DNA of 64,000 nucleotides from a virus (IMGVR_UViG_3300042154_004306), one strand, 5' to 3'. Positions 480 to 63,274 are shown, counted from the stretch's first letter. Numbers and translations are program-made. Notes: generated from the letters alone by a model not told the origin.

Positions 480-983
480 ATGAAGTATATTAAACTATTC
501 GAGGAACTGGAGTCTGACCTCCCTACCCTAAGGGACGTGGTCGACAATAACCCTGACGATTTTGAAGATTTTGAAAGGGCCGCACTTGAAACGGTCGATG
601 CTCTTGATCTTAAACTTGATCCGGATGAACAACGACTTCGGGAGCTTGGCCTAATTGACAAGTATGAGCTATTTGATCGAGTCAAGCTTGTGTTCAATAT
701 TGATGACGTTCCCCACACTGATGTGCCAAGACTCCGGGCCCTGGTGCAGAAGTTTCCAGGCCTTTTCACGGTTTGGTACGGTGAGCTTATCGCCAGCCGC
801 GAAGCGGTTCCCGACAAGGAGATCGATCCGAAAGTTGGCCAGTATCCTTTCAAATGGAGTGGGTCTAAAATTCTATATGATGAAGTAGACGTGACTGTGT
901 GGAAAGACTCGGCTGGTAATACTGCAGTCTATTGGGAGAGCTTACATATTCGGATGTGGTTCATGTTGGGCTCAGCATTATAA
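480..983 (+). CDS. hypothetical protein with CTS-like N-terminal leader MKYIKLFEEL
   Basis: 167 aa ORF. N-terminal decapeptide shared with 13 other ORFs in the window. ATAAATAA motif at 466-474 upstream. Confidence 0.6.
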   Translation: MKYIKLFEELESDLPTLRDVVDNNPDDFEDFERAALETVDALDLKLDPDEQRLRELGLIDKYELFDRVKLVFNIDDVPHTDVPRLRALVQKFPGLFTVWYGELIASREAVPDKEIDPKVGQYPFKWSGSKILYDEVDVTVWKDSAGNTAVYWESLHIRMWFMLGSAL

Positions 984-995
984 AAAAAAACTCAA

Positions 996-1520
996 ATGAA
1001 ATACCTTAAGATATTCGAAGAATTCAATAATTCAGAACTTGCAACCCTACAGGACGTGCTCAATCCGGACCATTTTAGCGTGGTTGCAAGTAGATTTGAG
1101 ATGTATTCAGAGGCCGCGATTGAGACCTGTAAAATGCTTGGCATTGAGCCACCGCCGAATGTTGCCAGACTTCATGAACGTGGCCTTGCTGATCAGCAAC
1201 AACTGCTTGACAGTTTACCACTGGACTCTGTGGTTGAGGTCTTCAATGCACTGGCTCTCGATTACCGGACCGAACCAAGAGTTCGCGAATTCTGCCGTCG
1301 CTTTCCTGGTATACTAGCATACGATCCGAACACCGACGAGTATCGTCGACCTGAGAGTTCGCGAGAGATTGAAGAGATCTTTGTTGAAGATCCAGAATAC
1401 GGGGACGAGGTTAGGGTGGTGCTCTTTGAGGGCGATAACGGACTAATGGCAGTTGAATGGGATAGCCAATACACTATATCCTACTTCATGCTCAGACAGG
1501 ACCTTGAGTCTAATGAATAA
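996..1520 (+). CDS. hypothetical protein with CTS-like leader MKYLKIFEEF
   Basis: 174 aa ORF. Leader family member; tandem with the previous gene. Confidence 0.6.
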   Translation: MKYLKIFEEFNNSELATLQDVLNPDHFSVVASRFEMYSEAAIETCKMLGIEPPPNVARLHERGLADQQQLLDSLPLDSVVEVFNALALDYRTEPRVREFCRRFPGILAYDPNTDEYRRPESSREIEEIFVEDPEYGDEVRVVLFEGDNGLMAVEWDSQYTISYFMLRQDLESNE

Positions 1521-1548
1521 TCTTACAAAAAACACTGAAATCTAAATA

Positions 1549-2598
1549 ATGCCAAACGTAGTAAAGTACAGCGCGACAACCCAGACCGCCGCTCTTAAAA
1601 AGTCAAATTACTGGATAGGCGTCGGCGACGTTGATAAGGGACCAACTTCATCAACCGACTATTGGAACGGAATCACGCCACCTTCTGGAGGCTACACGAT
1701 ATATCTAAATAAAGCAAGCGGAGGCCCATCCATTTACGTTGCGGCAAACGATGCAGCGCTAATAGGTTATACGGCTATGATTTCAGGCACAACCTATGCC
1801 AGTGCGGCACTTGCATTACAGTATTATTACGGCCAAACCGATAAGATGGTAATCGATCGAGACTATGAAGCAGTTAAAACGACTAATCTAGCATTTTCGG
1901 TTGATGCTGCGTTTGCACCTTCATATCCACGTACCGGTACGGTGGTGAATGATATGGGCAGTTCAGTAGTTACTCAAAACCTGACAAACAGCCCAACGTT
2001 TGTTTCATCCGGATCAGCATCATATTGGTCATTTGATGGCTCGAATGACCATCTAACCACCAGCGCATATAATGCAGCATTTTCGATTAATGGTAGTCTA
2101 CCCTATACCGCTGAGGTTTGGTTCTATCCACTTACACCAAGTAGCACAATTCAGTATTATATGGTTTTTGGTAGTTATTCAAGTGTCACCGGCGGTAATC
2201 ATGGTTGGGGTATTAACTTTACTCAAAATCCGGGTTCAGCCGCATCAGGTTACGTTACATGTTATTGCGAAAGGCTTGGTGGTGGAGCAAATATAAATAA
2301 TGCGAATGAGTCCATAACCACAGGTAATTTCTATAATAACTGGCATCAAGTCGTTTATGTATATGACGGTAGCAACGTGTTGATGTATCGTAACGGTTCT
2401 CTAAAGATGACGACCAGCATAACTTTTACCGTAACAAATACATCAGCTAGACTTTCAATCGCGGCAAGACCATCACAAGCAACACCAACCGTATATACTA
2501 AAGTTCGTGTCAATAACGCAAGGTTTTACTCTCGTGCTTTAACCGCAACCGAGATACTAAATAACTTTAATGCACAAAGGGGTAGAGTAGGACTTTAA
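1549..2598 (+). CDS. LamG/concanavalin-A-like lectin domain protein (putative virion or tail fibre protein)
   Basis: 349 aa. SFDGSNDHL ... AEVWFYP ... HQVVYVYDG ... YRNG pattern typical of the Laminin_G_3 jelly-roll. Confidence 0.5.
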   Translation: MPNVVKYSATTQTAALKKSNYWIGVGDVDKGPTSSTDYWNGITPPSGGYTIYLNKASGGPSIYVAANDAALIGYTAMISGTTYASAALALQYYYGQTDKMVIDRDYEAVKTTNLAFSVDAAFAPSYPRTGTVVNDMGSSVVTQNLTNSPTFVSSGSASYWSFDGSNDHLTTSAYNAAFSINGSLPYTAEVWFYPLTPSSTIQYYMVFGSYSSVTGGNHGWGINFTQNPGSAASGYVTCYCERLGGGANINNANESITTGNFYNNWHQVVYVYDGSNVLMYRNGSLKMTTSITFTVTNTSARLSIAARPSQATPTVYTKVRVNNARFYSRALTATEILNNFNAQRGRVGL

Positions 2599-2614
2599 AA
2601 TAATAGAATTTTAA

Positions 2615-2905
2615 ATGGAAAGAACATTCATAGTATTTAACATTTCAGAATTATCAAAGATTAATTTTGAAGAGGTATTAGAGACCAGCTCAGATACAGT
2701 TAGGCTATCACTAAGCGGCACCAAGACCTTTGTTAAATGGGAAGGAACAACGCCTCAATGTATTAAAACATTGACAACATCTGAAGGACCTTATACCTAT
2801 CAAGAAATGCTACAAATATTGGACGGATCTGACTGGAGTGATGGTCCTGGTTTAATAAATAGACAATACTTCAATACTACTACTACTAAAATTGAAGAAT
2901 ATTAA
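2615..2905 (+). CDS. hypothetical protein
   Basis: 96 aa ORF in a compact same-strand gene array. Confidence 0.4.
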   Translation: MERTFIVFNISELSKINFEEVLETSSDTVRLSLSGTKTFVKWEGTTPQCIKTLTTSEGPYTYQEMLQILDGSDWSDGPGLINRQYFNTTTTKIEEY

Positions 2906-3527
2906 TTTGAAATACGTTAAACTATACGAGAACTTCTTTGAGGATATGGAACGCGCAGCGGATCAAGCTCATGAACCGGTGCCTTTCAAGAAGAAGGAGA
3001 AGAAGATTAAACCTGAAGCGGAACCGGAAGAGAAGCCAGTCAAGGTTCAAGAGCCTGCTCAAACCGAACCTGAAGAGGACACGACTAAAACTACGACTGA
3101 CGCACCTGTTGCTGAGGAACCTAAATCTTTTAAAGACTGGTTGGTAACTAAGGTAAAAAAGATAGCGGAGTGCGAAGAGACCGAGCAGAGCGTGAAGTGT
3201 TGGGCAGAACTTGAGAACGAAACCTCATGCCAATGGTCAATCTCAATGGAGGATTATCCAACAGTTGAGGCAAGCTTTAAACTCGGAGAGAACACTGTGT
3301 ATTTGGACAATGATACTGCTGGCGAGATTGCTCGTGAGTATTACACCGGAAAGAGAGAATACGATCCGAAACTTTGGACCGAATGCGTGCTCAAGGTCGG
3401 AACCGAGTTTCCGGACTTCATGAGACGAATGGAGAAGGAGGCAATCAACCGAGCGACCGATCAAGACATTGAGCTCTCAAAGCAGATCGCAGTCAGGTTC
3501 GGCACCCAAAAAACAGGTAAAAAATAA
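2892..3527 (+). CDS. hypothetical lysine/glutamate-rich protein with leader (L)KYVKLYENFFED; the real start is probably the TTG at 2907
   Basis: 211 aa ORF. The conserved leader begins at the second TTG (ttg aaa tac gtt aaa cta tac gag aac ttc). Confidence 0.5.
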   Translation: MKNINLKYVKLYENFFEDMERAADQAHEPVPFKKKEKKIKPEAEPEEKPVKVQEPAQTEPEEDTTKTTTDAPVAEEPKSFKDWLVTKVKKIAECEETEQSVKCWAELENETSCQWSISMEDYPTVEASFKLGENTVYLDNDTAGEIAREYYTGKREYDPKLWTECVLKVGTEFPDFMRRMEKEAINRATDQDIELSKQIAVRFGTQKTGKK

Positions 3528-3537
3528 AAGACCTCAC

Positions 3538-3897
3538 ATGAAAAATTTAAAAGCATTTACTCAATTCATTAATGAAGACCTTACTAAGGATGACAAGGAC
3601 CATCTTAGAAATCTAGGAATAACTAACTATTCTGCACCTTTTGAAGAAAGATATCAGGAGCTACTGAACGACTGGATGTCTGATCCTGAAGTACGTACTG
3701 CGATTGATACCTTAAAGGCCAAGTTTGATGAACTATTTGCACAACAAATAGATGTCAATTCAGATGAGGATTCTAACAAAGTTAATCAAATTAAAGACCG
3801 GCTGTATGATTATAGTATTGACGATATTGGTTGGTTTGAGTATGTTTTTTTTAATGAAGCAGACAATCAATCAAGGCTAAAATACCTAACTCGGTAA
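3538..3897 (+). CDS. hypothetical protein with leader MKNLKAFTQFINED
   Basis: Internal ATG at 3538 of track ORF 3469..3897 restores the family leader. The upstream 69 nt overlap the previous gene. Confidence 0.5.
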   Translation: MKNLKAFTQFINEDLTKDDKDHLRNLGITNYSAPFEERYQELLNDWMSDPEVRTAIDTLKAKFDELFAQQIDVNSDEDSNKVNQIKDRLYDYSIDDIGWFEYVFFNEADNQSRLKYLTR

Positions 3898-3999
3898 ATA
3901 ATTAGTAACTTTAAAGAAAAAAGTTATCTAGGACTGGGCTTCGATAATTCTTAGAGTGTTCGGCTAAAATAAATAAACCTGAAATAAATTACTCAATAA

Positions 4000-4884
4000 A
4001 TGCCAAAATACATAAAATTATTTGAATCGTTCATTAGCGAAGGCGCCAATGATCCAATGACAAAGTTTGCAGATACGGGCAAAGTTAAATGGACTGATTA
4101 TCTACAACTCTTTAAATTGTCTAATAAAAAACTTGGCAAAATGATGGCCATAACTAATGCTGCACAGATAGCAAAAACCGGCAGTAATATAGTTGCAATG
4201 TTAACAATCTCAGATAATACAGTCAATTCTAAATTAAAAGCGATCGGCGGAACTGCAGTAGTTGAGCAGTCTGGGAAACTATCTGCATTGCCTAACGGAG
4301 AGCCGGATTATGTTTTTTCAGCCAGATACGGATTCAAAGTAACTGAACAGGACGGGGCTGCAAAGCTCGATGCAATCTCTGATATTTTAGATGGAGTCAA
4401 TTCTACTGGCTCAGCCGGTTCAGCTGGGAAAGCTGGGACTTCGGGTTCAGCTGGTACTGCCGCTGATAAAATGTTCGGAGCAGCGGCGTCTGCTGGTTTC
4501 GATAAAGCAATGCAAGCGGCTGGTGTACAACAGGTCGCTGCCTACTTACGAATGATAAACGATCCAGCCTTACAGGCAGCCGCTGGCCAAGATGCTACAA
4601 TCAAGACTCTACTTGATGCTCAGGCCTCTGCCGCTACTCCAGCAGAAAAGGACACTAAAGAAAAGGAAATTGAACCCAAGGTTAAAGCCGCACTAACTGC
4701 AAAATTAGTCCAAGCTCAATCTGAATATAGAGCAACTCAAGATCTAAATTTACAGAAGCAGGCCCAAGACAAAGCCATGCAATTGGATTCTTTACTAAAA
4801 AACTATAAGCCGCAGTTCGGTGCAGCCCTTAATGTGGGTTCTGCTGGAACTTCAGGATCGGCTGGTACTGCTGCCAAAAAATAA
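4000..4884 (+). CDS. hypothetical protein with leader MPKYIKLFESF; Gly/Ser/Ala-rich repeats
   Basis: 294 aa. Repeated GSAGSAGKAGTSGSAGTAA near the centre and at the C-terminus. AAAATAAATAAA at 3966-3977 upstream. Confidence 0.6.
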   Translation: MPKYIKLFESFISEGANDPMTKFADTGKVKWTDYLQLFKLSNKKLGKMMAITNAAQIAKTGSNIVAMLTISDNTVNSKLKAIGGTAVVEQSGKLSALPNGEPDYVFSARYGFKVTEQDGAAKLDAISDILDGVNSTGSAGSAGKAGTSGSAGTAADKMFGAAASAGFDKAMQAAGVQQVAAYLRMINDPALQAAAGQDATIKTLLDAQASAATPAEKDTKEKEIEPKVKAALTAKLVQAQSEYRATQDLNLQKQAQDKAMQLDSLLKNYKPQFGAALNVGSAGTSGSAGTAAKK

Positions 4885-4893
4885 TAGTAAAGT

Positions 4894-6066
4894 TTGAAAT
4901 ACATAAAATTATTTGAAGAACAAGCGATTGACCTATTAATGGCCGAGTTAGAAGATCTTGAGAGATTAAGGGAAATAGGGCTCGTCGATGATCCTGATTA
5001 CGCTGAGCAAAAGTCTCTTATTGAACTTAAGCTACGTAAGCATGCAAAAGACGAGTTAACGACCAATTCGCAACATACCATTTATTCAAAAGAATGGTTT
5101 GAAGATCTTAGAAAGAAATCTGAATTCAGATGGCTGATTAAAGTTGTTGATTCTCCGGAATATGCAGCCCTAGTTGCAAAAGACGTTTTTCTATCATCAT
5201 CCGTTACTCAACTACTCAATCACACACTAGTCTTTTCAAAGAGGGTTAATCGAAATGTTAAGACCGACTTTGCGATAGGGTTCTTTGCAAATGTTAATGT
5301 GGTAAAACGGATCTTTCCTAAAACTGGCTACCGGGACATGAATCTGCAAATGAAAAGGTTTGACGCCAGTTTATCAGAGATAGATTTCTTCAAGCAGGCA
5401 ATGGCATGGGTATCAGAGACTTTAGATTTTTCAGAAAGATGGTTTCCAGCTAAGAGAACGGTTGCTTTGGCTAAAACGACGAGCGATGATCAAACTAGGT
5501 TGATGGACTTAATTACTAAACTTGTTCAAGAGGACATGTCTAAAATTAGCGCAAGCGAATCTCAAAAAACAATAAGATCTCTTTATCATACTATGGGCGG
5601 CCAATTTGAGGCAGCCGTCCGTAAAAATGCAATTAAGAACCTAATAAATTATTTCGAAAATGGTTCATGTACGATAGTGTTTAACAGTAACCAAACTTAC
5701 ACACACGACATGATAACTGTTCTATCTAAATCTGGAATATCAATTTCACACGATGGTGCAGGTCAATACCAATTTGAAGGTCAAATTACAAACCTTGATA
5801 ACTTTAACTTTCTGCCAGTTAAAGATCCAAAAGCACGATCAATTTCAATCTTGCAAAATCCAAATCAATCTCGTGAGATTTGTTTTGAAAGCCTGGAAGT
5901 GGTGCTTGCTAAATTAGCCAGCGTAGGAATAAAATCAACTGGGTACATTTCAATCTACGGTGGATCATTATTTTCGGCTGACGAAAACGAGAGAGTTAAG
6001 AGAATTTCCAATCGACACGGAATCGATTACTTATATGCTGACACAAGATTCAGTTGGCGAGATTAA
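4894..6066 (+). CDS. hypothetical protein with leader (TTG start) MKYIKLFEEQ
   Basis: 390 aa. TTG start codon at 4894 reproduces the conserved leader exactly. Confidence 0.6.
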   Translation: MKYIKLFEEQAIDLLMAELEDLERLREIGLVDDPDYAEQKSLIELKLRKHAKDELTTNSQHTIYSKEWFEDLRKKSEFRWLIKVVDSPEYAALVAKDVFLSSSVTQLLNHTLVFSKRVNRNVKTDFAIGFFANVNVVKRIFPKTGYRDMNLQMKRFDASLSEIDFFKQAMAWVSETLDFSERWFPAKRTVALAKTTSDDQTRLMDLITKLVQEDMSKISASESQKTIRSLYHTMGGQFEAAVRKNAIKNLINYFENGSCTIVFNSNQTYTHDMITVLSKSGISISHDGAGQYQFEGQITNLDNFNFLPVKDPKARSISILQNPNQSREICFESLEVVLAKLASVGIKSTGYISIYGGSLFSADENERVKRISNRHGIDYLYADTRFSWRD

Positions 6067-6105
6067 TCCTAACCTTTTACTCTCGATTTAGTATAATAAA
6101 CCAGT

Positions 6106-6708
6106 ATGGTCAACAATACTGAGCAGATCAGATCAATGTTACAATTTGATTCTGAAGATACTTTCTACTTTTTACAGATTTTTAAGAGACGTAAGGATAA
6201 TCCTAACATGGCAAAGGACATGATTGTTCTTGCGAATTACTGTGTCAAATCATTAGACCATTTTGACAAGCTTGTGCCCGATGTAGTCAAGCAGTGTCAA
6301 GACAATAGTGCTAGAGCCTATTTCAGACTCAATCGCCGAAGCTATCGTAAGACCTCACTCGAAGCTTTGAAGATGATTGCCGGTTACATAGCGGAAGGCA
6401 ATTACCGGGCAGTAAGAAATGCATTCGACTCAGCCGCTGGTACCCATCATTCAGAGCCGGACAAGACCTGGATAATTGATATTGACTACCTGGATATTGA
6501 AGGAGATCATGATCAGACCATCAATGAAGTAATCCACTCAGTACAAACCCTAATCTCTGAAACTGATAGAGACGATACGGTGTGGACCGTCAATAGCAAG
6601 AACGGAATTCATCTGATCTGCCGACCATTCAATCTTCAGAAATTTAAAAGCCTATATCCAAAAATAGACGTTCATAAAGATAATCCAACAATTTTATATG
6701 CAAACTAA
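6106..6708 (+). CDS. hypothetical protein
   Basis: 200 aa ORF. Confidence 0.45.
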   Translation: MVNNTEQIRSMLQFDSEDTFYFLQIFKRRKDNPNMAKDMIVLANYCVKSLDHFDKLVPDVVKQCQDNSARAYFRLNRRSYRKTSLEALKMIAGYIAEGNYRAVRNAFDSAAGTHHSEPDKTWIIDIDYLDIEGDHDQTINEVIHSVQTLISETDRDDTVWTVNSKNGIHLICRPFNLQKFKSLYPKIDVHKDNPTILYAN

Positions 6709-6898
6709 TTTATTACACGACCTAGCAACCTACTTAATACTTGGCCTCATTTGGGGAGCATTCATTGAGTACATTGAATATAGACAAGCAAATCGACAAA
6801 TTCCTAAAACTCTAATCGCTAGAGTAGTCGTCATCCTAACTTGGCCAATAACAGTATTCATAATGCTATTGGGAATGATCCGAAATTTATTAACCTGA
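6698..6898 (+). CDS. small membrane protein (2 predicted TM helices)
   Basis: 66 aa, hydrophobic segments LATYLILGLIWGAFI and VVVILTWPITVFIMLLGMI. Confidence 0.35.
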   Translation: MQTNLLHDLATYLILGLIWGAFIEYIEYRQANRQIPKTLIARVVVILTWPITVFIMLLGMIRNLLT

Positions 6899-6909
6899 AA
6901 ATAAGAAAT

Positions 6910-7119
6910 ATGTCAAAAACAATAATCGTACACGAAAGATTTAGAACCAACGAGCTAAGTCTTAGACCCGGCGGATACTCAGTGACCGTTGTTTATTCAA
7001 ATGGAATTCAGAGAGTTTATACCAACGTAAAGAATCCAAAAGCCTACATCAATTCTATCATGAAGGATGAGGCCATCGTTAAGACCCTAGTTGACGGCGA
7101 CGTTTACTGGACTCGATAA
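6910..7119 (+). CDS. hypothetical protein (start at internal ATG MSKTIIVHERF)
   Basis: ORF 6841..7119 trimmed to the ATG at 6910, preceded by aagaaata. This avoids overlap with the membrane ORF. Confidence 0.4.
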   Translation: MSKTIIVHERFRTNELSLRPGGYSVTVVYSNGIQRVYTNVKNPKAYINSIMKDEAIVKTLVDGDVYWTR

Positions 7120-7153
7120 ATATTTAGAAAACCAAAAATAGATTACTACAAAG

Positions 7154-7972
7154 ATGACAGTAAGTTTCGTTTGCACAACGTATCGCCGATACCGCTGTGT
7201 TGAGAGAATCATAGAACAATTCATTCAACAGGATTATCCGCATAAGGAATTAATTATCTTCAACACCGACATTGAGAATCCATTGAGCATTGATCCTGAC
7301 CTGATTGCCTTAAACATAAAGTTTTTCAATAATGATACTGACTATGTGACTGGCGAATCATACACTAATCGTGGAGCCATTTGCAGAGATGCAGTAACTC
7401 ATGCAACCGGTGAGTACTTCATGTTAGCGGATGATGATGATGCTTACTTGCCTTGGCATATTCGCCAAGCAGTTGATGGAATCTCTGCAAACTGCAAGGA
7501 TGCATGGAAGCCTGAAAAAAGCATCTTCGCGACTCCACATAAAGTTGAACTTACTCGAAATACGCTAGAGGCATCAGTAATCGTAAAGATGAATCGTATT
7601 AGAGAAATCGGGTTTAGGGATGATATGACAGGTTACGAGGGTTTAAGCTGGTACACCAAGCTTAGGGATGAGAACCACTTGGACGAACACTTTACCCACT
7701 ATATCCCATCTTATTGTTTTAACTGGTCAGATCCTTTAGACATGGCAGGTCACAAGCAGTCAGGCGATATTAATAATCCATCTAACTTTGACAATCACAA
7801 GGTTGCATCTACCGATGTTTCAGCAAAACCCTTGAATCGTTGCGGTCAGTCCGTGATCGAGCCTTTCTATAACAGGTTCTACCAATTCCTATCTGATACT
7901 AAAACCGACTACGATCCAGAACTATGGGCAAAATACGTAAGCCCATACGCCCAGGAGAGATTAGAGGCTTAG
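7154..7972 (+). CDS. family 2 glycosyltransferase (GT-A fold)
   Basis: 272 aa. N-terminal VSFVCTTYRRYRC...ELIIFNTD and acidic FMLADDDDAYLP (DxD-type) motif. Confidence 0.6.
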   Translation: MTVSFVCTTYRRYRCVERIIEQFIQQDYPHKELIIFNTDIENPLSIDPDLIALNIKFFNNDTDYVTGESYTNRGAICRDAVTHATGEYFMLADDDDAYLPWHIRQAVDGISANCKDAWKPEKSIFATPHKVELTRNTLEASVIVKMNRIREIGFRDDMTGYEGLSWYTKLRDENHLDEHFTHYIPSYCFNWSDPLDMAGHKQSGDINNPSNFDNHKVASTDVSAKPLNRCGQSVIEPFYNRFYQFLSDTKTDYDPELWAKYVSPYAQERLEA

Positions 7973-7985
7973 ATAAATAATCCAG

Positions 7986-9143
7986 ATGAAACTGTTTAAA
8001 TTCACCGAATTCATAAATGAGGGCCAATTCTACCAAGATCAATTGAATCCAATGGTCTGGGATGGAGAAGACCTTAACTCTGAGCTCAGAACCAAGCTTC
8101 TGCAAATTGCTCATGACTTCTATGAGGACCTAAAGGTTAGTGCTCCAATTGAAGATATTCAACTTACTGGATCCCTAGCTAATTATAACTGGACAAAGTA
8201 CTCTGACTTTGACGTGCATATTATCATGGATCTTTCCAAGATAAACAAGGACGTTGAGCTCGTGAAGATTGCAATGGAAGGTTTAAAGACCGTGTGGAAT
8301 CAACGCCATCCAGTAAATATTGAAGGATACGATGTTGAACTGTACGCACAGGACGTAAATCAATTACATTTGGCATCAGGTCTCTATTCTCTACTAAAGG
8401 GAGAATGGCTTAGAAAACCTGCGTATAATCCGCCTAGTGTTGATCCAAAAGACGTTCAGCTAAAATCTGACCATTACATCTATGCAATCAAGCAAATGAT
8501 TGACGAGATTCAAGAGGCTGGCCCGGAAGAGGCTCGTGATATTATGGAACGTGCCTCCGTTCTAAAGAAAAAGATCTCAAGATCAAGAGACGAACAGCTT
8601 GCGAATAAGGGCGGAGAGTTCTCGGTTGAGAATCTAGTATTTAAGAGATTACGTAATGAAGGCTGGATCGGAAAGTTAATTGACCTAAAGTCTCAAGCCT
8701 ATTCACATATTTATTCTGAACCCTCAAATGCAGTTGACTCTAAGTTCTCTACTGAAACTGATGTAGTAGACGAATCCGTTTCTTTCGGTAAGGGTAATAC
8801 GGTTGTTGTCATGGGTCCCAATGTTGAGGGAGGTCGCAGACTTTTCGTATTCTATATTGATTGGGCTAGAGAAGTTGAAAGAGCTGGTCGTTTGGTGCAA
8901 ATGGTTGGACTAGCTTCACCGATGATGATTCGTCAGGAGAATGGAAATCTGATTGCAAAACCGGTAATGTTCGATCCTCAAACTCTACAGAAATACGCTG
9001 GCCTTAGCGATTACCAAGTTGTTCTAAATTCAAAAACCAAAACTCCATTCTGGTTCGAGACCGTTAAGTTCTCAAATCATATCCCAATGCTTAGAGCATT
9101 AAGCAACCAGTTAATGGGAATTCCTGGAGTTAAGATACCTTAA
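7986..9143 (+). CDS. hypothetical protein with leader MKLFKFTEFINEGQ
   Basis: 385 aa. Leader family; ATAAATAA at 7973-7980. Confidence 0.6.
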   Translation: MKLFKFTEFINEGQFYQDQLNPMVWDGEDLNSELRTKLLQIAHDFYEDLKVSAPIEDIQLTGSLANYNWTKYSDFDVHIIMDLSKINKDVELVKIAMEGLKTVWNQRHPVNIEGYDVELYAQDVNQLHLASGLYSLLKGEWLRKPAYNPPSVDPKDVQLKSDHYIYAIKQMIDEIQEAGPEEARDIMERASVLKKKISRSRDEQLANKGGEFSVENLVFKRLRNEGWIGKLIDLKSQAYSHIYSEPSNAVDSKFSTETDVVDESVSFGKGNTVVVMGPNVEGGRRLFVFYIDWAREVERAGRLVQMVGLASPMMIRQENGNLIAKPVMFDPQTLQKYAGLSDYQVVLNSKTKTPFWFETVKFSNHIPMLRALSNQLMGIPGVKIP

Positions 9144-23572: not shown

Positions 23573-23657
23573 GGAGAGGTGGCAGAGCGGTTGAACGCGG
23601 CGGTCTTGAAAACCGTTTTAGGTAACACTAACGGGGGTTCGAATCCCTCCCTCTCCG
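23573..23657 (+). tRNA. tRNA-Ser (anticodon TGA), type II with long variable arm
   Basis: Acceptor ggagagg/cctctcc perfect; anticodon arm gcggt-cTTGAaaa-accgt; T-arm ggggg-ttcgaat-ccctc. Confidence 0.85.
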
Positions 23658-23680
23658 CAAAAATTAAGCAAAATGGAACT

Positions 23681-25709: not shown

Positions 25710-26005
25710 TTAGAGGTTCAGAACAAAATCGAAAACAAAGGGACATTGAACTTGCACGACTTGTTGAAGAGTTCACAGAAAAGCTGAAGTATGATCCATA
25801 TCGGCCGGGTATGGTACACCCAGAAGTTTATCCTGATGATTTACAGGAGGTAATTGAGGATCTTTTCTTTGTTAGAGGATTCTCCGAGGCAACCGTCAAG
25901 GTCAGTAAGAATCCTGACGGAATGTCAATTCAGGTTCAAGTTTTAAACCGGGGCGGAATAAATAATAAAAATTCCGCAATATCGGATGAAACTAAAGAAA
26001 TTTAA
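25697..26005 (+). CDS. hypothetical protein
   Basis: 102 aa ORF. Confidence 0.4.
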   Translation: MLEMIRGSEQNRKQRDIELARLVEEFTEKLKYDPYRPGMVHPEVYPDDLQEVIEDLFFVRGFSEATVKVSKNPDGMSIQVQVLNRGGINNKNSAISDETKEI

Positions 26006-26510
26006 TGAATTCATAGCAATAAATGAATCTCTTCATAGAGTTGAGATAGAAGAGCAACTTTTCATAATTGACGGTGAAATTTACGATGTTTACTACTTTG
26101 ATGTAGACTTAACATGGGACCATCAATCGGCTGATCCAGAGGTTGGAATACCGGTCTCATTTGATTTCGTTGAGGATTACTGGTTATATGGAGTAAATGA
26201 GGTTATGCAATTAACTAATCTTGAGCGCAGAGACGAAATCATTGATCTAGTGAATCCATTGGATCCTGAGCAGTCGGCTCAACTCATTAGATTGGGACTC
26301 AAGGAAGAGGCAAGTGAAGAGCTTATCGCGGATATTGCGTGCTCAGGAAGTTGGCAACAAAACTGGAAAGACTTGAAAGGCGAAGAGCTAAAGGCATTCT
26401 CCGATAGATTCATAAGTCTATATAAAGCCAACCAACTCAAACAAATAGTCGGTGACTTTTCGACCGAATTACAGGCGGCAGTCAATAAAATTGATGATAA
26501 GTACTGTTAA
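25986..26510 (+). CDS. hypothetical acidic protein with leader MKLKKFNEFIAINES
   Basis: 174 aa, leader family. Confidence 0.5.
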   Translation: MKLKKFNEFIAINESLHRVEIEEQLFIIDGEIYDVYYFDVDLTWDHQSADPEVGIPVSFDFVEDYWLYGVNEVMQLTNLERRDEIIDLVNPLDPEQSAQLIRLGLKEEASEELIADIACSGSWQQNWKDLKGEELKAFSDRFISLYKANQLKQIVGDFSTELQAAVNKIDDKYC

Positions 26511-26546
26511 TCATCAAATAAATAACCTAAAATTACACGAATCTAC

Positions 26547-27110
26547 ATGAAACTGTTAAAGTTCACACAATTTGTTAACGAATCAAAAGTTAATGAAGCA
26601 CAATTAAAAGACAAGGCAATCATTGCTAAGTTAGAAAGAATTCACGAAATCAAAGAAAGATTGAAAGAGTTGACTGCTGAAACTAAAGCAATCGACGGAG
26701 AATTAAAGGAGTTCGACGCATCAGTTAAACCAATCTTTGATGCAATGAAAGTTCTTAACGATAAATTGGCAACTACTGAAAAGTACGTAATGAAAATTAC
26801 AAGATACGGTGGAGAAGGATCTTCTGTTTCTTACGGAAAAGCGGTAGAACAGGCTCTAACAATGGTTGATGAAGCTGCTCAAGCAATCATTAACGAATGC
26901 GTTAGACAGAATACAGCAATCACCTCAGTTAAGCACTCTTTTGAAATCAATAAATTGGACGAAGGTAAGCTAACCGATAAGGCTAGGGCAGTAATCGCTA
27001 AGATTTCTGACAAGATTAAATCAATGGTTGCTAAATTCAAGAGCTTCTTTGACTCTAAGATCGCTAAGATCGATGCAGCTAACGCAAAACTTGCAGATAT
27101 TAAGAAATAA
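26547..27110 (+). CDS. hypothetical coiled-coil protein with leader MKLLKFTQFVNESK
   Basis: 187 aa. CAAATAAATAA at 26516-26526 upstream. Confidence 0.6.
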   Translation: MKLLKFTQFVNESKVNEAQLKDKAIIAKLERIHEIKERLKELTAETKAIDGELKEFDASVKPIFDAMKVLNDKLATTEKYVMKITRYGGEGSSVSYGKAVEQALTMVDEAAQAIINECVRQNTAITSVKHSFEINKLDEGKLTDKARAVIAKISDKIKSMVAKFKSFFDSKIAKIDAANAKLADIKK

Positions 27111-27120
27111 TTGAACCCCA

Positions 27121-27600
27121 ATGATTAAGTCACTAGTTCAAAGTTTCAATGAGTACACACTCAACGAGGCCAAATCAAGTCACCCAGCTAAATACAAAGC
27201 GCCCGAGGGTAGTTCCCGAGATGCCAAGCTCGATAAGGCCCAGGCCCTATTGAAAGCTGGCAAAAAGGATCAAGCTTACAAGTTGCGTGATGATATGGAA
27301 AAGAAGGAACGATCTAAACCGGATTGGAAGAACACTCCTCGCAAGGATTCACAAGTTGATGAAGCTAAAAAGGCGGGTAAGAACTTAAGCAAGGAAACTC
27401 TTGCAAAGATTAGAGCGGTTGCGACCAAAAAAGGTTACTCATTCGCCGATCTTAAAGGAGAATACGTTAAGGGTCTAGGCGCTTTCTACTCTTCAGGTTC
27501 AAGACCTGGAATGACTGCTCATCAATGGGCAATGGCAAGAGTAAATTCAGCGTCTCCTAGTAAATCTTGGGCAAATGTAAAAAAGGTTGGAAAAAAATAA
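27121..27600 (+). CDS. small basic (Lys-rich) protein with leader MIKSLVQSFNEYTLNEA; internal-protein-like
   Basis: 159 aa, highly basic, resembles T4 internal proteins in size and charge. Confidence 0.55.
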   Translation: MIKSLVQSFNEYTLNEAKSSHPAKYKAPEGSSRDAKLDKAQALLKAGKKDQAYKLRDDMEKKERSKPDWKNTPRKDSQVDEAKKAGKNLSKETLAKIRAVATKKGYSFADLKGEYVKGLGAFYSSGSRPGMTAHQWAMARVNSASPSKSWANVKKVGKK

Positions 27601-27712: not shown

Positions 27713-27789
27713 TGATCTCGTAACTCAGCTGGTTAGAGTACCATACTTTTAATATGGGAGTCACAGGTTCGAATCCTGTCGGGATCACC
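27713..27789 (+). tRNA. tRNA-Lys (anticodon TTT), CCA encoded
   Basis: Acceptor gatctcg/cgggatc; D-arm actc-agctggtta-gagt; anticodon arm ccata-cTTTTaa-tatgg; T-arm acagg-ttcgaat-cctgt; 3' aCCA. Confidence 0.85.
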
Positions 27790-27801
27790 AAAGACAAAAT
27801 A

Positions 27802-27872
27802 CGCGGGTGTGGTGCAATGGTAGCATATCGGTCTCCAAAACCCTTGACGGGAGTTCGAATCTCTCCACCCGT
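27802..27872 (+). tRNA. tRNA-Trp (anticodon CCA), weak anticodon stem
   Basis: Acceptor gcgggtg/cacccgt; T-arm gggag-ttcgaat-ctctc; loop cTCCAaa; only 3 clean bp in the anticodon stem. Confidence 0.5.
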
Positions 27873-27973
27873 GCTCTAGATAGTTTTCAAAAGAAAACCA
27901 AACTTTGGATGTTATGGTATATTATTATTATTAATAACAAAGAGAGTCCTTTGACATATTGGAGATCGCAAAT

Positions 27974-28046
27974 TGTCCTTTAGCTCAATTGGCAGAGCAT
28001 CTGTTTTACATGCAGAGGGTTATGGGTTCGAATCCTACAGGGACAA
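27974..28046 (+). tRNA. tRNA-Val (anticodon TAC)
   Basis: Acceptor tgtcctt/agggaca (one G-T); D-arm gctc-aattggca-gagc; anticodon arm tctgt-ttTACat-gcaga; T-arm atggg-ttcgaat-cctac. Confidence 0.6.
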
Positions 28047-28096
28047 CAAATCTTGGGATTAATTACCCTAAGACTGGATGATTCGAAGCATCCGAT

Positions 28097-28191
28097 TGAT
28101 TATGGTGTAATGGTGCACACTGGCCCCGGAAAGTAAGCCTCACAGCTGAAATCAGGGCCGGGGGATTAAGGTTCGAATCCTTATTAGTCAG
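28097..28191 (+). tRNA. atypical tRNA-like gene with ~28-nt insertion in place of the anticodon loop
   Basis: Acceptor tgattat/ttagtca (6/7); D-arm gtgt-aatggtgc-acac; perfect T-arm taagg-ttcgaat-cctta. Between them a ggccc/gggcc stem encloses 28 nt (cggaaagtaagcctcacagctgaaatca). Confidence 0.3.
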
Positions 28192-28200
28192 CAAATATAT

Positions 28201-28273
28201 TGTGGGGTAGAGAAGTGGTCATCTCACAAGGCTCATAACCTTGAGATCAGGGGTTCGAATCCCTTATTCGCAA
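28201..28273 (+). tRNA. tRNA-Met or tRNA-Ile2 (anticodon CAT), acceptor stem rich in G-U pairs
   Basis: D-arm gaga-agtggtca-tctc; anticodon arm caagg-ctCATaa-ccttg; T-arm agggg-ttcgaat-ccctt; acceptor tgtgggg/attcgca gives 3 WC + 3 GU + 1 mismatch. Confidence 0.5.
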
Positions 28274-28278
28274 CGAAT

Positions 28279-28384
28279 GATTAGATGGACGTAATGAGGG
28301 ACGGCTCCCGAATCCCCAACTCGAAAGAGGTAAGGTCGTCTACCCCGTCTAGCACGGTATCCGGTTCGAGTCCGGCTCTAATCG
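28279..28384 (+). tRNA. long (~106 nt) tRNA-like gene, possibly type II or intron-containing
   Basis: Perfect 7-bp acceptor gattaga/tctaatc; T-arm ccgg-ttcgagt-ccgg. The interior could not be folded by eye into D/anticodon/variable arms. Confidence 0.3.
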
Positions 28385-28494
28385 CCCGGATTCATGTACG
28401 TCGAGCGCAAACCAATTGCTCTTCAGGTAGATTTACATGGATAAACAACCCGTCACGGTATGCTCTACGGGGCAGGAGTGAACTGAAGAGAAAC

Positions 28495-28571
28495 GGACTG
28501 GTAGTTCAGCTGGTTAGAATGCCGCCCTGTCACGGCGGAGGCCACATGTTCGAGTCCTGAAAGGTCCGCCA
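28495..28571 (+). tRNA. tRNA-Asp (anticodon GTC), CCA encoded, T-arm and acceptor imperfect
   Basis: 5' two-thirds nearly identical to bacterial tRNA-Asp (TAGTTCAGCTGGTTAGAAT, ccgcc-cTGTCAc-ggcgg). T-stem acatg/cctga and the last two acceptor pairs mismatch. Confidence 0.45.
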
Positions 28572-29009: not shown

Positions 29010-29678
29010 ATGATGAATGAATTCCAAAAGTACGCAATGAGCGAGCACGGTGTGTCATCGCTGAATTTGCATAATTATCAAAAACAAGTTGAAGCATCAA
29101 TGACGCCTTATATCCTAGAGGAACGCGAGTTACGCGTTACCCAAATGGACATTTTTTCCAGATTAATGCGCGATCGTATCTTATGGGTCGCGGGTCCGGT
29201 GAATGACTATATGTCAACCATCGTGCAGGCTCAACTAATGTTTCTAGACTCAGTTGATGGCAAGGACATTACCATGCACATTGACTCTCCAGGCGGATCG
29301 GTTAAATCAGGTCTCTCAATGGTCGATGTGATGGACTACATCAATGCAGACATAGTCACGGTTAATACTGGAATGGCAGCATCGATGGGGTCTGTTCTAC
29401 TAGGCGCAGGAACAAAGGGCAAGAGGTTTTCACTAAAGCACTCACGTACAATGCTACATCAATCAAGTGGAGGTTTTAGCGGAAATATTCAGGATGCTGA
29501 AGTTGACATGGAAGAATGGAAGAAGATCAATGATGAGCTCTTCATTCTGCTGGGCAAGTACTGCGGTAAAAAACCTGAACAGGTTAAGAAAGACGCAACT
29601 AGAGATTTTTGGTTGACTGCTGACGAAGCAGTTAAGTACGGTATAATTGATCAAGTAATCCTAAAGAAGGCTAAATAA
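29010..29678 (+). CDS. clpP: ClpP-family serine protease
   Basis: 222 aa. Ser (GMAASMGS) / His / Asp triad regions conserved; ILWVAGPVND ... HIDSPGGSV. Confidence 0.85.
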   Translation: MMNEFQKYAMSEHGVSSLNLHNYQKQVEASMTPYILEERELRVTQMDIFSRLMRDRILWVAGPVNDYMSTIVQAQLMFLDSVDGKDITMHIDSPGGSVKSGLSMVDVMDYINADIVTVNTGMAASMGSVLLGAGTKGKRFSLKHSRTMLHQSSGGFSGNIQDAEVDMEEWKKINDELFILLGKYCGKKPEQVKKDATRDFWLTADEAVKYGIIDQVILKKAK

Positions 29679-40672: not shown

Positions 40673-40742
40673 TTAGGTCTCACAGACAAATAAACTTATT
40701 TAGCCACATTACTTATACACTTTGTTATAAAACGTTATTTAT

Positions 40743-40943: not shown

Positions 40944-40947
40944 TGTT

Positions 40948-54223: not shown

Positions 54224-55789
54224 ATGAGAATCATTAAATCTTACTCAGAATTCATTACTGAAAATTTAAACAATGAAGGCTTAGGCGAACTTGGTAAAAA
54301 GGCAATTGGTGCAGTTAAAGGCTTTCTTGGAAAAGCCGGCGGTTTCTTAAGTGCTTTAAAAGCCCAAATGAGCGGCAAGCGATCAGAAAACGGTGCAGAT
54401 GGTACTATTCCGTATGGCGTAACTATCATTCCATCGGCAGCCGATGCACAGGCACTTGATATTACGGAAATGCCACAAATCACAAGAGATGGGGAATCTG
54501 ATTCTGCAGATGTTGATGAAGCTGTGGTTCCATTGGACTTTCCAAATGTGAAGGCTGGTGTTATAAATGTGGGAGCTGAGAGACTATTAAGAATTATCAA
54601 CAGAGTCCTTAAAAACAAGGACGAACGTCCGATAATGATATGGGGAGCACCAGGTATTGGTAAAACATCAGTCGTTAAAGCGGTTCAAAAACAATACGGA
54701 GGCCGTATGATTGATGTACAGTTGACAACCTATGCACCAGAAGATTTCTTCTTACCTGAAGTAGAAGGTTCAACTTCACAGCAGGGCCGATATTCACGTA
54801 GAGCAGGTCGTGTTCCACAGGGCTGGTTACCGGTTTATCACGAGTCTGAAGGTCAAGAAGGTAATGATAAAGCAAACGGCCCAGATGGAAAGGGCGGAAT
54901 TATCTTCTTAGACGAATTATCAAGAGCTAAAGAGGCAATCCGTAATATTTGTTTGAAACTTGTACTCGATAGAGAAATGGATGGAGGTTGGAAATTAGGT
55001 AGCAACTGGACGATCATTGCTGCCTCTAACCGAATGGAAGACGATGAAACTAATACATCCGAATTTGGTTCTGCCCTAGGTAATCGTTTCCAACAGGTAA
55101 ACTATTCACCATCCATTAAAGATTACAGTAAGTATGCACTTTCTGCAAAAAGTGAAACTGGCGAAGACCTATTTGATCCACGTATTATTTCATTTTTGAA
55201 CTGGACAAAAGGTCAAGACTTTTTTCACAAATACGATCCAGACGTCTCTGGTACTATTTTCCCAAGCCCACGTTCATGGGAAGCGGCTGCCATTGCTTTG
55301 AAAAATCTTAAGAGGGAATCTGCTGAGTCTGGCATGACACTAACTCCAGAAATTATTGAAAACGAAGCAATTGCACCAAATGTAGGTAAAGAAGCTGCAA
55401 GCATGTTCATGGGTTACTATGCACTATCTCAAAAGATCGACCTTGATAAAATGAATTTGGTGTACTCTGATCCAATGAATGCACCGTTACCTCCTAAATC
55501 AAGAGGTAGTAATGATTACGAAATCGATTCAGCATACATCCTTGCATCAGCAATTGCATACGAATACCGGGACAGAGATCTAACTGATCAGGAAATTGAC
55601 AACTTATTTGAGTATATTATTAGAGTCGGCGATCCAACTGTTGCGATTCAAATTCTATCAGCAGTTAGAGAGAACCAGCCAAATGTCGCAAAAAATACTT
55701 ATCCAGCAACTGTTGCTGGACTTAAAAAATTCTTGGCTGCATATCCTGGTTCAACTAGAGAAATTCAAGCCGCAAATCTTAATCCATAA
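54224..55789 (+). CDS. MoxR-like AAA+ ATPase carrying the family leader MRIIKSYSEFITEN
   Basis: 521 aa. Walker A IWGAPGIGKTSVVKAV, Walker B IIFLDELSRA; AATAAATAA at 54193-54201. Confidence 0.75.
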   Translation: MRIIKSYSEFITENLNNEGLGELGKKAIGAVKGFLGKAGGFLSALKAQMSGKRSENGADGTIPYGVTIIPSAADAQALDITEMPQITRDGESDSADVDEAVVPLDFPNVKAGVINVGAERLLRIINRVLKNKDERPIMIWGAPGIGKTSVVKAVQKQYGGRMIDVQLTTYAPEDFFLPEVEGSTSQQGRYSRRAGRVPQGWLPVYHESEGQEGNDKANGPDGKGGIIFLDELSRAKEAIRNICLKLVLDREMDGGWKLGSNWTIIAASNRMEDDETNTSEFGSALGNRFQQVNYSPSIKDYSKYALSAKSETGEDLFDPRIISFLNWTKGQDFFHKYDPDVSGTIFPSPRSWEAAAIALKNLKRESAESGMTLTPEIIENEAIAPNVGKEAASMFMGYYALSQKIDLDKMNLVYSDPMNAPLPPKSRGSNDYEIDSAYILASAIAYEYRDRDLTDQEIDNLFEYIIRVGDPTVAIQILSAVRENQPNVAKNTYPATVAGLKKFLAAYPGSTREIQAANLNP

Positions 55790-59661: not shown

Positions 59662-59904
59662 ATGAACATATTAACAGCAGAAGAATTTTTAGAAGAAATG
59701 GATAAAGATAATGATGACCTTAATTCTATTATTGAAAGAGCAATGATTGAATTTGCTAAAACGCATGTGGAAGCAGCTTTAAAATTAGCTAGTGAGAATG
59801 CAGAAATGGAATATGAACCAGATTGGTCAGGAGAACAAGAAGATATTACTTATATTAACAGAGATTCAATATTAAATGCTTATCCATTAACAAATATAAA
59901 ATAA
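59662..59904 (+). CDS. small acidic hypothetical protein
   Basis: 80 aa. Confidence 0.4.
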   Translation: MNILTAEEFLEEMDKDNDDLNSIIERAMIEFAKTHVEAALKLASENAEMEYEPDWSGEQEDITYINRDSILNAYPLTNIK

Positions 59905-61061: not shown

Positions 61062-61973
61062 TTGAAATTATTAGATTTTACTGAATTCGTTAATGAAGCT
61101 GCATTAAAACAACACTTCGAGGATCGGACCCGTCAAAGAATCATGAATTCGTTGATTGTTACCTTATCTGACAAGACGCTTACTTTATTAAGAGAAAATG
61201 GAATTTCTACAATAGAAGTTCAACCAAAAATAGCTGATCTAATTAGACAAGAGTTTGAAAGTAAGGTTAGAGTTATACAAAGAAATGATTTTGCTAATAG
61301 GCACGTTGCTGACATAATGTTGATTCCAATCATTAAGATTGGAAAGTTTGAAGCTCCGGTTAAAATGTCGGTTGAGTCAGTAGACATTGACCCAAAGACA
61401 CAAAGGGAAATTATAAAGATATATCATGGCGAAATGATAGTCGGCTATATAAATCATAATGAGGCTGTAACGCTAAAAGTTTTCCCAACTTCGGTGTCTC
61501 ATGAAGAACTCGCTAAGAATTCAAACGATCATCACATAAGAAAATTCGGAAGGACGGTAGACACTCAAGTTATTGAGCATGAGAGTTCAAAACTACTAAT
61601 CTCAGTTAAGGAAGACGGTACTGTCGAAAAATTAGAAAAGGCGAGTGCCAATTTTAAAAAGATCGCTAAAGTCGAAAGCGAGTATACTCTTTCACCCGGT
61701 AGAATAATATCAGTATGGATTCCTTTCATGCGCGATTTCGTACCGGTTGAGATAGTTGAGGTCATGAACCGAACGAGTGCTAGAGCTGATGGATTTGTGA
61801 AAGTGTTAGTTCAATTACCGGACGGTCGTAAGGTTCCAAAAACTCTGAAACCTGGAGATCAAGTAAAGACTCCAGGTAAAGATGGAGACGGCCTCGTTGA
61901 TAAAAAAGTAGCAGATTCACTATTCGTAGACTATGATAAACGCGGTGGAGAATTTGCCATTAAATTCACCTAA
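61062..61973 (+). CDS. hypothetical protein with leader MKLLDFTEFVNEAAL
   Basis: 303 aa, leader family. Confidence 0.6.
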   Translation: MKLLDFTEFVNEAALKQHFEDRTRQRIMNSLIVTLSDKTLTLLRENGISTIEVQPKIADLIRQEFESKVRVIQRNDFANRHVADIMLIPIIKIGKFEAPVKMSVESVDIDPKTQREIIKIYHGEMIVGYINHNEAVTLKVFPTSVSHEELAKNSNDHHIRKFGRTVDTQVIEHESSKLLISVKEDGTVEKLEKASANFKKIAKVESEYTLSPGRIISVWIPFMRDFVPVEIVEVMNRTSARADGFVKVLVQLPDGRKVPKTLKPGDQVKTPGKDGDGLVDKKVADSLFVDYDKRGGEFAIKFT

Positions 61974-62965: not shown

Positions 62966-63274
62966 ATGGAGACTAATACCAATACAATCTTAAGCTTTCA
63001 AGAGTTCGTGAAGCATAATGTGCAAGGTCAAGTTGGCACAGAAATGCCAGCGACTGAATTTGAGCCAATGCACGACGAATTTCCTACTCCAGTAGAAGAA
63101 CCAACCATGTCTGAACCGGTTGGAGACGATATGCCTGTTCCAGCACAAGAGCCAATTAGCGATGAGCCTGAGACTGATTCAGCAGTTCACATGACAGACG
63201 ATGAAACCGGAGAAGCTGATGCCCCTGTAGTTGATGCAAACGTCATGATGGATGACGAGCCTAAAAAAGACTAA
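62966..63274 (+). CDS. acidic Pro/Glu-rich hypothetical protein
   Basis: 102 aa; GATAAATAAA at 62937-62946 upstream. Confidence 0.45.
   Translation: METNTNTILSFQEFVKHNVQGQVGTEMPATEFEPMHDEFPTPVEEPTMSEPVGDDMPVPAQEPISDEPETDSAVHMTDDETGEADAPVVDANVMMDDEPKKD

Follow-up and report, generated by a model that had tools for sequence, protein, structure and literature searches.

The 64,000-nucleotide stretch of viral DNA analysed here, from IMGVR_UViG_3300042154_004306 (this whole stretch is called the window below), is tailed-phage DNA with a G+C content of about 39%, in which nearly all genes lie on the + strand. Fourteen of its open reading frames (ORFs, named by their first position) begin with a leader of 12-16 residues, M-K-x-h-K-x-(F/Y)-x-(E/Q)-(F/Y)-(I/V/L)-x-E, and all fourteen are present on the + strand at the starts that a preliminary description of this DNA had assigned to them (Table 1). 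The start codon is TTG in the ORFs so marked in the table and ATG in the remaining ones; ORF 61062 is also called with 303 amino acids (aa) on another contig. As argued below, the leader is probably a T4-type capsid-targeting propeptide, which would be carried by an expanded set of cargo proteins including a nucleotidyltransferase and a MoxR ATPase.

Leader genes of the window

Two scans of the six-frame translation place the motif at the beginning of proteins. The strict core pattern [FY][ETQNSK][EQSN][FY][IVLTFEN]x(1-2)E has ten matches in the window, nine of them 4-8 residues past the start of a long + strand ORF, the remaining one being internal (16737) and none falling on the - strand. 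A position-specific scoring matrix (PSSM), for which only leaders of other viral contigs (45 in all) were taken to avoid circularity, gives, at a cut-off of 8 bits, ten matches over some 128,000 positions, all ten at ORF N-termini and none internal. All the matrix matches and nine of the ten pattern matches lie no more than 8 residues from an ORF start.

Table 1. ORFs of the window with a leader or a candidate leader (arrows, predicted cleavage points; pI, isoelectric point)
Type	Position	Strand	N-terminus	Product	PSSM score	Promoter-like motif
Leader, class B	480..983	+	MKYIKLFEE↓LESD	167 aa, mature pI 4.4; paralog of 996		ATAAATAA at 468-475
Leader, class B	996..1520	+	MKYLKIFEEFNNSE	174 aa, acidic	10.5	
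Leader, class B, TTG	2907..3527	+	MKYVKLYENFFE↓D	206 aa, acidic; start agrees with gene callers on other contigs		
Leader, class A	3538..3897	+	MKNLKAFTQFINE↓D	119 aa, acidic	32.7	
Leader, hybrid	4000..4884	+	MPKYIKLFESFISE↓G	294 aa, pI 9.2, Gly/Ser/Ala-rich	19.9	ATAAATAA at 3969-3976
Leader, class B, TTG	4894..6066	+	MKYIKLFEE↓QAID	390 aa		
Leader, class A	7986..9143	+	MKLFKFTEFINE↓GQFY	385 aa	37.2	ATAAATAA at 7973-7980
Leader, class A	25986..26510	+	MKLKKFNEFIAINE↓S	174 aa, acidic	20.3	ATAAATAA at 25958-25965
Leader, class A	26547..27110	+	MKLLKFTQFVNE↓S	187 aa, basic	39.5	ATAAATAA at 26518-26525
Leader, class A, long variant	27121..27600	+	MIKSLVQSFNEYTLNE↓A	159 aa, pI 10.1, DUF5824		
Leader, class B	52795..53367	+	MKYIKLFEEFEDDFE	190 aa, acidic		
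Leader, class A	53383..54168	+	MIKTFKQFILE↓S	261 aa	25.2	
Leader, class A	54224..55789	+	MRIIKSYSEFITE↓N	521 aa, AAA_5/MoxR-type ATPase		ATAAATAA at 54194-54201
Leader, class A, TTG	61062..61973	+	MKLLDFTEFVNE↓A	303 aa, pI 9.0	22.7	TATAAATA at 61033-61040
Candidate long leader	11266..12042	+	MNQIMSFNNFKSSQLIAE↓A	YkuD/Tlde1-type, L,D-transpeptidase-like		ATAAATAA at 11237-11244
Candidate	52401..52808	+	FKSFMVNE↓A at residues 23-30			ATAAATAA at 52344-52351
Candidate degenerate leader	62966..63274	+	METNTNTILSFQEFVKHN	102 aa, acidic		ATAAATAA at 62938-62945
Weak candidate	59662..59904	+	MNILTAEEFLEEM	80 aa	11.1	ATAAATAA at 59653-59660

The leaders fall into two spellings. Class A reads (F/Y)-x-(E/Q)-(F/Y)-(I/V/L)-x-E, class B has the degenerate form MKY(I/L/V)K(L/I)(F/Y)E(E/N), in which the sole h-x-E is L/I-(F/Y)-E at residues 6-8, and the leader of ORF 4000 is a hybrid that joins both. 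Because the two spellings replace each other within one orthologous family of relatives, they are regarded as variants of one signal. The leader had been described as 10-12 residues long and as ending nearly always in (I/L/V)-x-E. The length proves somewhat greater, reaching 16 residues in ORF 27121, and the canonical aromatic-x-x-aromatic-(I/V/L)-x-E is found in 9 or 10 leaders, 5 being degenerate.

The cleavage points of the T4 internal proteins (IPs), of gp23 and of gp22, indicated here by arrows, we take to be established knowledge. In the T4 record NC_000866, IPII and IPIII begin with MKTYQEFIAE↓A and IPI begins with MKTFKEFTSTTTPVSTITE↓A (MKTFKEF...ITE↓A), while gp23 and gp22, among the T4 genes compared, contain ...AFGSFLTE↓A and MLKEQLIAE↓A. 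The capsid-targeting sequence (CTS) of T4 IPI, IPII, IPIII and Alt is cut off by the prohead protease gp21 (Mullaney & Black 1996, reviewed in PMC9026906 and PMC5694885). Mutagenesis of the T4 CTS has linked residues 4 and 7 to targeting and residues 8 and 10 to processing (PMC9026906). These four mapped positions are the four conserved positions of the leader, with identical spacing, and 9 or 10 of the 14 leaders have aromatics at the IPIII-equivalent positions 4 and 7 together with I/V/L at 8 and Glu at 10. Moreover, the leader profile gives 12.4 bits to the T4 core YQEFIAEA and 10.6 bits to the gp23 cleavage site FGSFLTE↓A, both within the top 0.01% of window positions. The resemblance to the T4 CTS that had been proposed therefore holds for core residues and spacing alike.

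The same leader residues are spelled by differing codons, and no block of upstream DNA is common to the leader genes; the constraint therefore acts on the protein. A translation-initiation or codon artefact, raised in the preliminary description as the alternative, does not stand up to this variation. On such an account the common N-termini would be non-functional, arising by cassette shuffling at conserved 5' ends or from selection for A/T-rich codons with efficient initiation in a host that does not use Shine-Dalgarno sites; in fact, no Shine-Dalgarno site is visible in the window, upstream regions are A/T-rich and many ORFs begin ATG AAA. However, the leader stands on only about 15% of the genes, in one family the spacing of aromatic, aliphatic and Glu residues stays fixed across 40 or more spellings and among members as little as 45% identical, and the motif is shared by T4, where Shine-Dalgarno sites are in use. 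Together with the varying codons and upstream DNA, this makes a non-functional origin hardly credible.

Exact back-translated leader patterns were also scanned in IMG/VR, where about 0.03 chance matches are expected for each by our own estimate. M-K-x-x-K-F-x-(E/Q)-F-(I/V)-N-E was found in 29 stretches and MKYIKLFE(E/Q) in 75, and many of the pattern-matched stretches hold clusters of additional leader genes. A third spelling, MKHIKLFE, makes up the majority of the 516 pattern-matched stretches, only 31 of which encode a relative of the query.

The bodies behind the leader are diverse. When the first 20 residues are trimmed, all-against-all BLASTP matches only ORFs 480 and 996 (31% identity, E 1e-14), so that the bodies, all of them said to be unrelated, are so with the exception of this pair of paralogs. 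Their portrayal as acidic, basic or a MoxR ATPase agrees with mature pI values of 4.2-4.8 in six proteins and 9.0-10.1 in four, and with the AAA_5/MoxR-type product of ORF 54224. Pfam and PHROG scans of the leader proteins assign no function to 10 of the 14 bodies, and the Pfam coiled-coil matches of ORF 26547 are all below threshold. ORF 7986 encodes a pol-beta-type nucleotidyltransferase, as judged from a GS...DxD motif, a weak NTP_transf_2 match and phrog_36119.

The family of ORF 7986, with 3,115 homologs, allows the behavior of the leader to be followed on a single body. Among the best-scoring listed members longer than 240 aa (n = 119), 81 carry (F/Y/W)-x-x-(F/Y/W)-(I/L/V/M)-x-E in their first 20 residues; the family displays at least 40 leader spellings, and the conserved body begins directly after the Glu. 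Homologs of the LR745206 clade begin with MKLNKFYEFVQ(D/S/A)D, without the Glu; in T4, an Asp in place of the cleavage-site Glu stops cutting but not targeting (PMC9026906). The homolog of Maribacter phage Molly has an unrelated N-terminus without leader, and no leader was found anywhere in the whole Molly genome. The leader thus behaves as a portable element, carried by unrelated bodies and missing from some homologs.

In addition, several leader genes are preceded by a promoter-like motif. ATAAATAA, which resembles the T4 late promoter TATAAATA and takes the form (A/T)ATAAATA(A/G), occurs at 21 sites in the window versus 9.8 expected. The motif lies 11-30 nucleotides upstream of 6 of the 14 leader genes versus 5 of 83 others (Fisher p = 9e-4), and two of those five (11266 and 59662) have leader-like N-termini themselves. 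Exact ATAAATAA sites also precede ORFs 52401 and 62966, which together with 11266 and 59662 are candidates that had not been noticed previously. Other genes are preceded by a differing motif, TAGTATAAT. T(A/G)GTATAAT(A)A, a second upstream motif distinct from ATAAATAA, is found about 5-15 nucleotides before the non-leader genes 6106, 9164, 22286, 28599, 31522 and 49196, and probably represents an early or host-type promoter class.

The candidates differ in kind. The product of ORF 11266 could be a capsid-delivered cell-wall enzyme, because it combines the late-promoter-like motif with a possible long leader ending in LIAE↓A; it is the first of two adjoining YkuD-type L,D-transpeptidase-like genes at 11266-12591 (Tlde1_dom/YkuD, then YkuD_2). 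ORF 52401 either has a longer propeptide or truly starts further 3'. The MoxR-type ATPase gene is the first of a three-gene set at 54224-57602, followed by a DUF2201_N metallopeptidase-like gene (55789-56523) and a VWA-like DUF2201 gene (56523-57602). The N-terminus of the DUF2201_N protein, MKRLLDWNSFNQYSQFSKSNLVLE↓N, is a possible long leader.

Head operons of relatives and the lineage of the window

Head-operon loci of related phages were assembled in two sets. The first consists of six loci among about 100 short stretches retrieved by the leader pattern alone. L008, L227 and L277 encode a small leader protein between portal and protease, L216 has a pair of leader genes between scaffold and capsid gene, and in L018, a closer T4 relative whose protease is 34% identical to gp21, leader genes lie between gp21 and a gp22-like scaffold. 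The second set comprises 80 head loci of the L227-like clade chosen by capsid protein, not by leader, and contains 93 N-terminal leader ORFs versus 6 other matrix matches. In these loci, the gene of about 112 aa between portal and protease begins with a leader in 60 of 78 cases, e.g., MKIIKTFEDFITE↓DA or MKYVKLFEQFIKE, and the gene after the capsid gene often begins with MKLKSKLKLYEEFVNE↓S.

The protease of the relatives is the N-terminal domain of a protease-scaffold fusion of 600-720 aa. In hhalign, a 24-sequence alignment of this domain matches T4 gp21 with a probability of 80% (E 1.4e-5), the His and Ser motifs GEFDHP and VSSRAAG being aligned with GELNHP and VSSRGLG of gp21. Its Pfam S77 match is below threshold (E 0.005) and a PDB profile search with the N-domain returned nothing relevant; the genes beside it match Pfam Gp23 (1.8e-26) and Portal_T4 (2.7e-57).

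The motif recurs inside the scaffold part of the fusion, where all 31 complete regions examined hold 2-15 copies. In the LR745206 clade (about 60 loci, L052-L155) it forms 10-13 tandem 14-residue units, Y-S-E-Y-(I/L/V)-A-E-N-L-D-K-N-I; in the fusion gene of LR745206 itself (198546-200669, spanning L042/L043) the units, aYSEY(I/L/V)AENLDKNI, reproduce the T4 CTS core and are followed by a long acidic stretch. The copies of L008 read YSEMVAE, YMEMIAE, YQDYINE and FKNFLSE. The capsid-protein propeptide of the relatives is conserved as well, and ends in ...EW-M-(A/S)-E-(Y/M)-A-E-(F/Y)-H-S-I-N-E↓N. Since the scaffold of the relatives contains these internal copies, the comparison suggests that the tag may imitate the self-association and cleavage unit of the scaffold.

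The position of some leader genes lends itself to a different explanation, the main alternative to capsid loading, in which the leader would be seen by the prohead protease, or during virion assembly in another way, without any loading of cargo; the tagged proteins would be assembly factors, core or scaffold accessories of the gp67/gp68 kind or decoration proteins, to be degraded or retained as structural parts. The most conserved leader gene of the relatives does encode a small acidic protein at the gp67/gp68 position, the gene after the capsid gene is tagged too, and six proteins of the window are small and strongly acidic. Yet enzymes (the nucleotidyltransferase and the MoxR ATPase) and basic, Lys-rich IP-like proteins bear the same tag. 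In T4, moreover, one tag serves core proteins as well as the ejected IPs and Alt (PMC5694885). By analogy with T4, accessory and cargo roles are not mutually exclusive, and we consider it unlikely that accessory roles account for the set on their own.

Two further observations concern these head operons. In L018, an ORF on the - strand (3577-4947) between the gp21-like protease and the gp22-like scaffold has leader-like segments at three places, spaced by some 90 residues (MKLTNLINE↓A, MKTKKFNEFVNE↓A and MKLKGLLNE↓S), and resembles either a polyprotein built from small cargo modules or genes fused in frame. Small genes near head operons (L008 12-275, LR745206 189151-189516 and L227 6054-6437) look like T4 gp55, the late sigma factor, which would fit T4-type late promoters in these phages.

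As for the lineage of the window itself, a contig overlapping the window end has the T4 neck gene gp13 some 9.7 kb beyond that end, and contigs with a gp13 97-100% identical to it encode a T4-type portal (Pfam Portal_T4, 2.9e-69) and further leader genes. Portal and gp13 of the lineage lie about 10-13 kb past the window. ATAAATAA stands directly upstream of the portal and neighboring small genes (L165/L162). The gene just before gp13 (L165 8512-9249; the same in L157 and L162) is also preceded by ATAAATAA, and near residue 125 its product has a strong internal match to the leader profile, KAAKTFESFVTE↓C (11.5 bits), which may mark a cleavage site within the protein. One step rightward along a 129.7-kb contig, no capsid or protease gene of the lineage was encountered. 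Identity of the lineage portal amounts to 41-45% with the portals of the L227, L216 and L008 groups and to 35% with the LR745206 one (genome of 635 kb); at this last figure LR745206 was rejected as a genome-wide proxy, although it is useful for the head module.

The window also encodes a ClpP homologue (29010-29678; phrog_94, 1.7e-37), and a ClpA/ClpB-like AAA+ protein is found about 5 kb past its end (L157 8745-10724). ClpP was considered as the prohead protease and rejected, as relatives use an S77 fusion beside the capsid gene in their head operons; LR745206 has two ClpP homologs, 64% and 41% identical, away from the head operon. The ClpP of the window, not needed as prohead protease, is probably a true ClpP.

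The presence of ClpP and of the ClpA/ClpB-like ATPase could be taken to mean that the leader sends proteins elsewhere, either as a degron for these phage proteins or as an amphipathic signal for a membrane or another compartment. The leaders alternate K, E and aromatics, with no hydrophobic stretch of the Sec, Tat or lipoprotein type, where a basic n-region is followed by a hydrophobic core of 10 or more residues, and signal-like N-termini that do exist in the window (e.g., 9164, 12064 and 34975) differ from them; being charged throughout by K and E and devoid of a hydrophobic core, the leaders were rejected as signal peptides. The motif instead equals the T4 CTS and the gp23 cleavage sites, it recurs within scaffolds and capsid propeptides, and leader genes lie inside head operons, all of which makes a destination other than the capsid quite improbable.

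The phage that carried the window can be described in outline. When 12 kb of window sequence was compared by megablast with 50,697 phage records, no match was obtained; by protein, the closest records are uncultured 634-642-kb 'huge phages', to which a topoisomerase II subunit of the window is 55-56% identical. The window sequence was found again in several JGI, ENA and Logan assemblies, and the genome is probably about 270 kb long, because a protein identical to that of ORF 7986 is present on contigs up to 270,359 bp. The 'moraphages' described in 2025 are freshwater phages of 200-307 kb with predicted Bacteroidota hosts, whose core genes include a prohead core protease, portal, gp13, ClpA and a sigma factor (PMC12619734). 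The window lineage matches this description and possibly belongs there, its host being probably a member of the Bacteroidota.

Other features of the window were noted in passing. The gene for the topoisomerase II medium subunit (14109-16868) is split in two, with a DUF7487 gene (14687-15646) in between; the N-terminal part (14109-14645) includes an intein-splicing domain, the C-terminal part occupies 15627-16868, and the arrangement looks like an intein or homing-endonuclease insertion. Two A/T-rich islands (40000-48000 and 58000-61000), with a G+C content of 0.29-0.32 versus 0.39-0.44 elsewhere, are dense in small ORFs; paralogs 43829 and 45016, located within these islands, have a common N-terminus, MKDL(K/T)HI(K/R)RFNESEENLNISDV. 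The six transfer RNA genes lie at 23573-23658 (Ser) and 27714-28571 (Lys, Trp, Val, Met and Asp), the latter cluster directly after leader genes 25986-27600.

A putative capsid-targeting route

A mechanism of the T4 type would connect these elements. Late in infection, T4-like (A/T)ATAAATA(A) promoters would drive the leader genes. The two aromatics three residues apart, together with I/V/L-x-E, would bind the scaffold core of the assembling prohead, so that the attached protein is enclosed by the shell; a gp21/S77-family prohead protease would then cut after the Glu, leaving the mature protein free inside the capsid, from which it may leave with the DNA at infection. Because the tag appears to be portable, it could have been placed on many unrelated bodies, among them small acidic and basic proteins, a pol-beta nucleotidyltransferase, a MoxR-type ATPase, a DUF5824 protein and probably an L,D-transpeptidase-like enzyme. 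Scaffold binding, cleavage, packaging and ejection are steps that we infer for the leader proteins, and a role for them as anti-defence effectors would be speculation.

The sequence-testable parts of the capsid-targeting proposal made in the preliminary description have come out in its favor: the window has leaders with a CTS core, its lineage a T4 portal and gp13, and the relatives head-operon leaders, a gp21-like protease and a scaffold and capsid motif. Several points nevertheless weigh on the other side. The lineage's own prohead protease, scaffold and major capsid genes were not found in the window, in 10 kb upstream or over some 40 kb downstream; scans that used the capsid proteins of LR745206 and L119 and an L227/L008/L216 alignment as queries did not recover its capsid or protease genes, and a degenerate protease-motif scan gave no protease of the lineage among the matches listed. 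The portals are only 35-45% identical, and therefore the transfer of evidence from the relatives spans a real evolutionary distance. The same head module was seen with no leaders nearby in the uncultured genome LR756500, in the cultured Tenacibaculum phage PTm1 (head regions for both) and in Molly, also cultured, and of 45 loci sampled more broadly by their protease only 8 have a leader gene directly before it. Within the window, the five class B leaders have no (I/V/L)-x-E at the canonical place and share only the aromatic pair, a 521-aa AAA+ ATPase is an unusual cargo, and all 14 members are known from sequence alone.

A wider proposal can be advanced more tentatively, and with less confidence than the capsid-targeting role itself: the leader might be an address label used across many uncultivated T4-headed jumbo phages, probably of Bacteroidota, which by extrapolation would load some 40 or more proteins, enzymes included, per 270-kb genome into their capsids, the label copying the tandem self-association and cleavage unit of the scaffold. 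Under this proposal, injected effector repertoires would become predictable from sequence, and the decades-old question of the CTS partner in T4 could be answered.

Phage proteins injected with the DNA act first in infection, the classic case being T4 IPI*, which blocks a restriction enzyme. To our knowledge, the injected proteins of uncultivated phages are normally not identifiable. If the capsid-targeting role is correct, a simple profile of N-termini would suffice to pick out candidate injected proteins from many metagenomic genomes of jumbo phages. The scaffold repeats provide a testable model of how the T4 CTS recognizes the prohead core, and the tag could serve to load foreign proteins into the capsids of Bacteroidota-infecting phages. 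The mechanism as such is known from T4; what is new is how large and scattered the tagged set is, that its predicted cargo includes enzymes, how widely the tag is spread among uncultivated phages, and that scaffold repeats reproduce it. A full-text literature search turned up no account of leaders of the CTS type in comparable huge or jumbo phages, and the moraphage paper makes no mention of N-termini (PMC12619734).

Comparison with T4 and other phages

Like the T4 CTS, the leader is an N-terminal tag of 10-19 residues that starts with MK and has aromatics three apart, followed by I/L-x-E and then a small residue (MKTYQEFIAE↓A as compared with MKLFKFTEFINE↓G), and it is attached to unrelated, fast-evolving and often small acidic or basic proteins. 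Portal and neck gene of the window lineage are likewise of T4 type, and the lineage has a motif resembling the late promoter TATAAATA. Among the relatives, the acidic leader protein of about 112 aa is placed between portal and protease like T4 gp67/gp68, and the scaffolds carry repeated (I/L/V)-x-E sites like gp22. Unlike gp22, a separate protein with no such repeats, these scaffolds are fused to the protease and contain up to 13 tandem 14-residue CTS-core units.

There are also differences from T4. The tagged set had been called unusually large, and it indeed amounts to 14 genes plus about four variants (14-18 in 64 kb), in contrast to three IPs and a few core proteins in the whole of T4. Tagged genes are scattered and do not form a single IP locus, and both a MoxR-type AAA+ ATPase and a nucleotidyltransferase figure among the predicted cargo. 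In the leader itself, Asn is favored at P2 (I/V-N-E) and an additional K-x-h-K stretch is present. A further difference would be the host, which probably belongs to the Bacteroidota.

The giant phages of the phiKZ/SPN3US type form another point of reference. In these phages the cleavage motif is (S/A/G)-x-E; the leaders of the window have I/V/L at P3 and a length of 12-16 residues, and so do not conform to this type. Propeptides of the phiKZ/SPN3US type mostly exceed 100 residues, whereas T4 CTSs have 10-20 (PMC5694885). Like the set proposed here, however, phiKZ and SPN3US have many head-internal proteins, some of them enzymes, which are cut after Glu by a gp21-related protease (PMC5694885).

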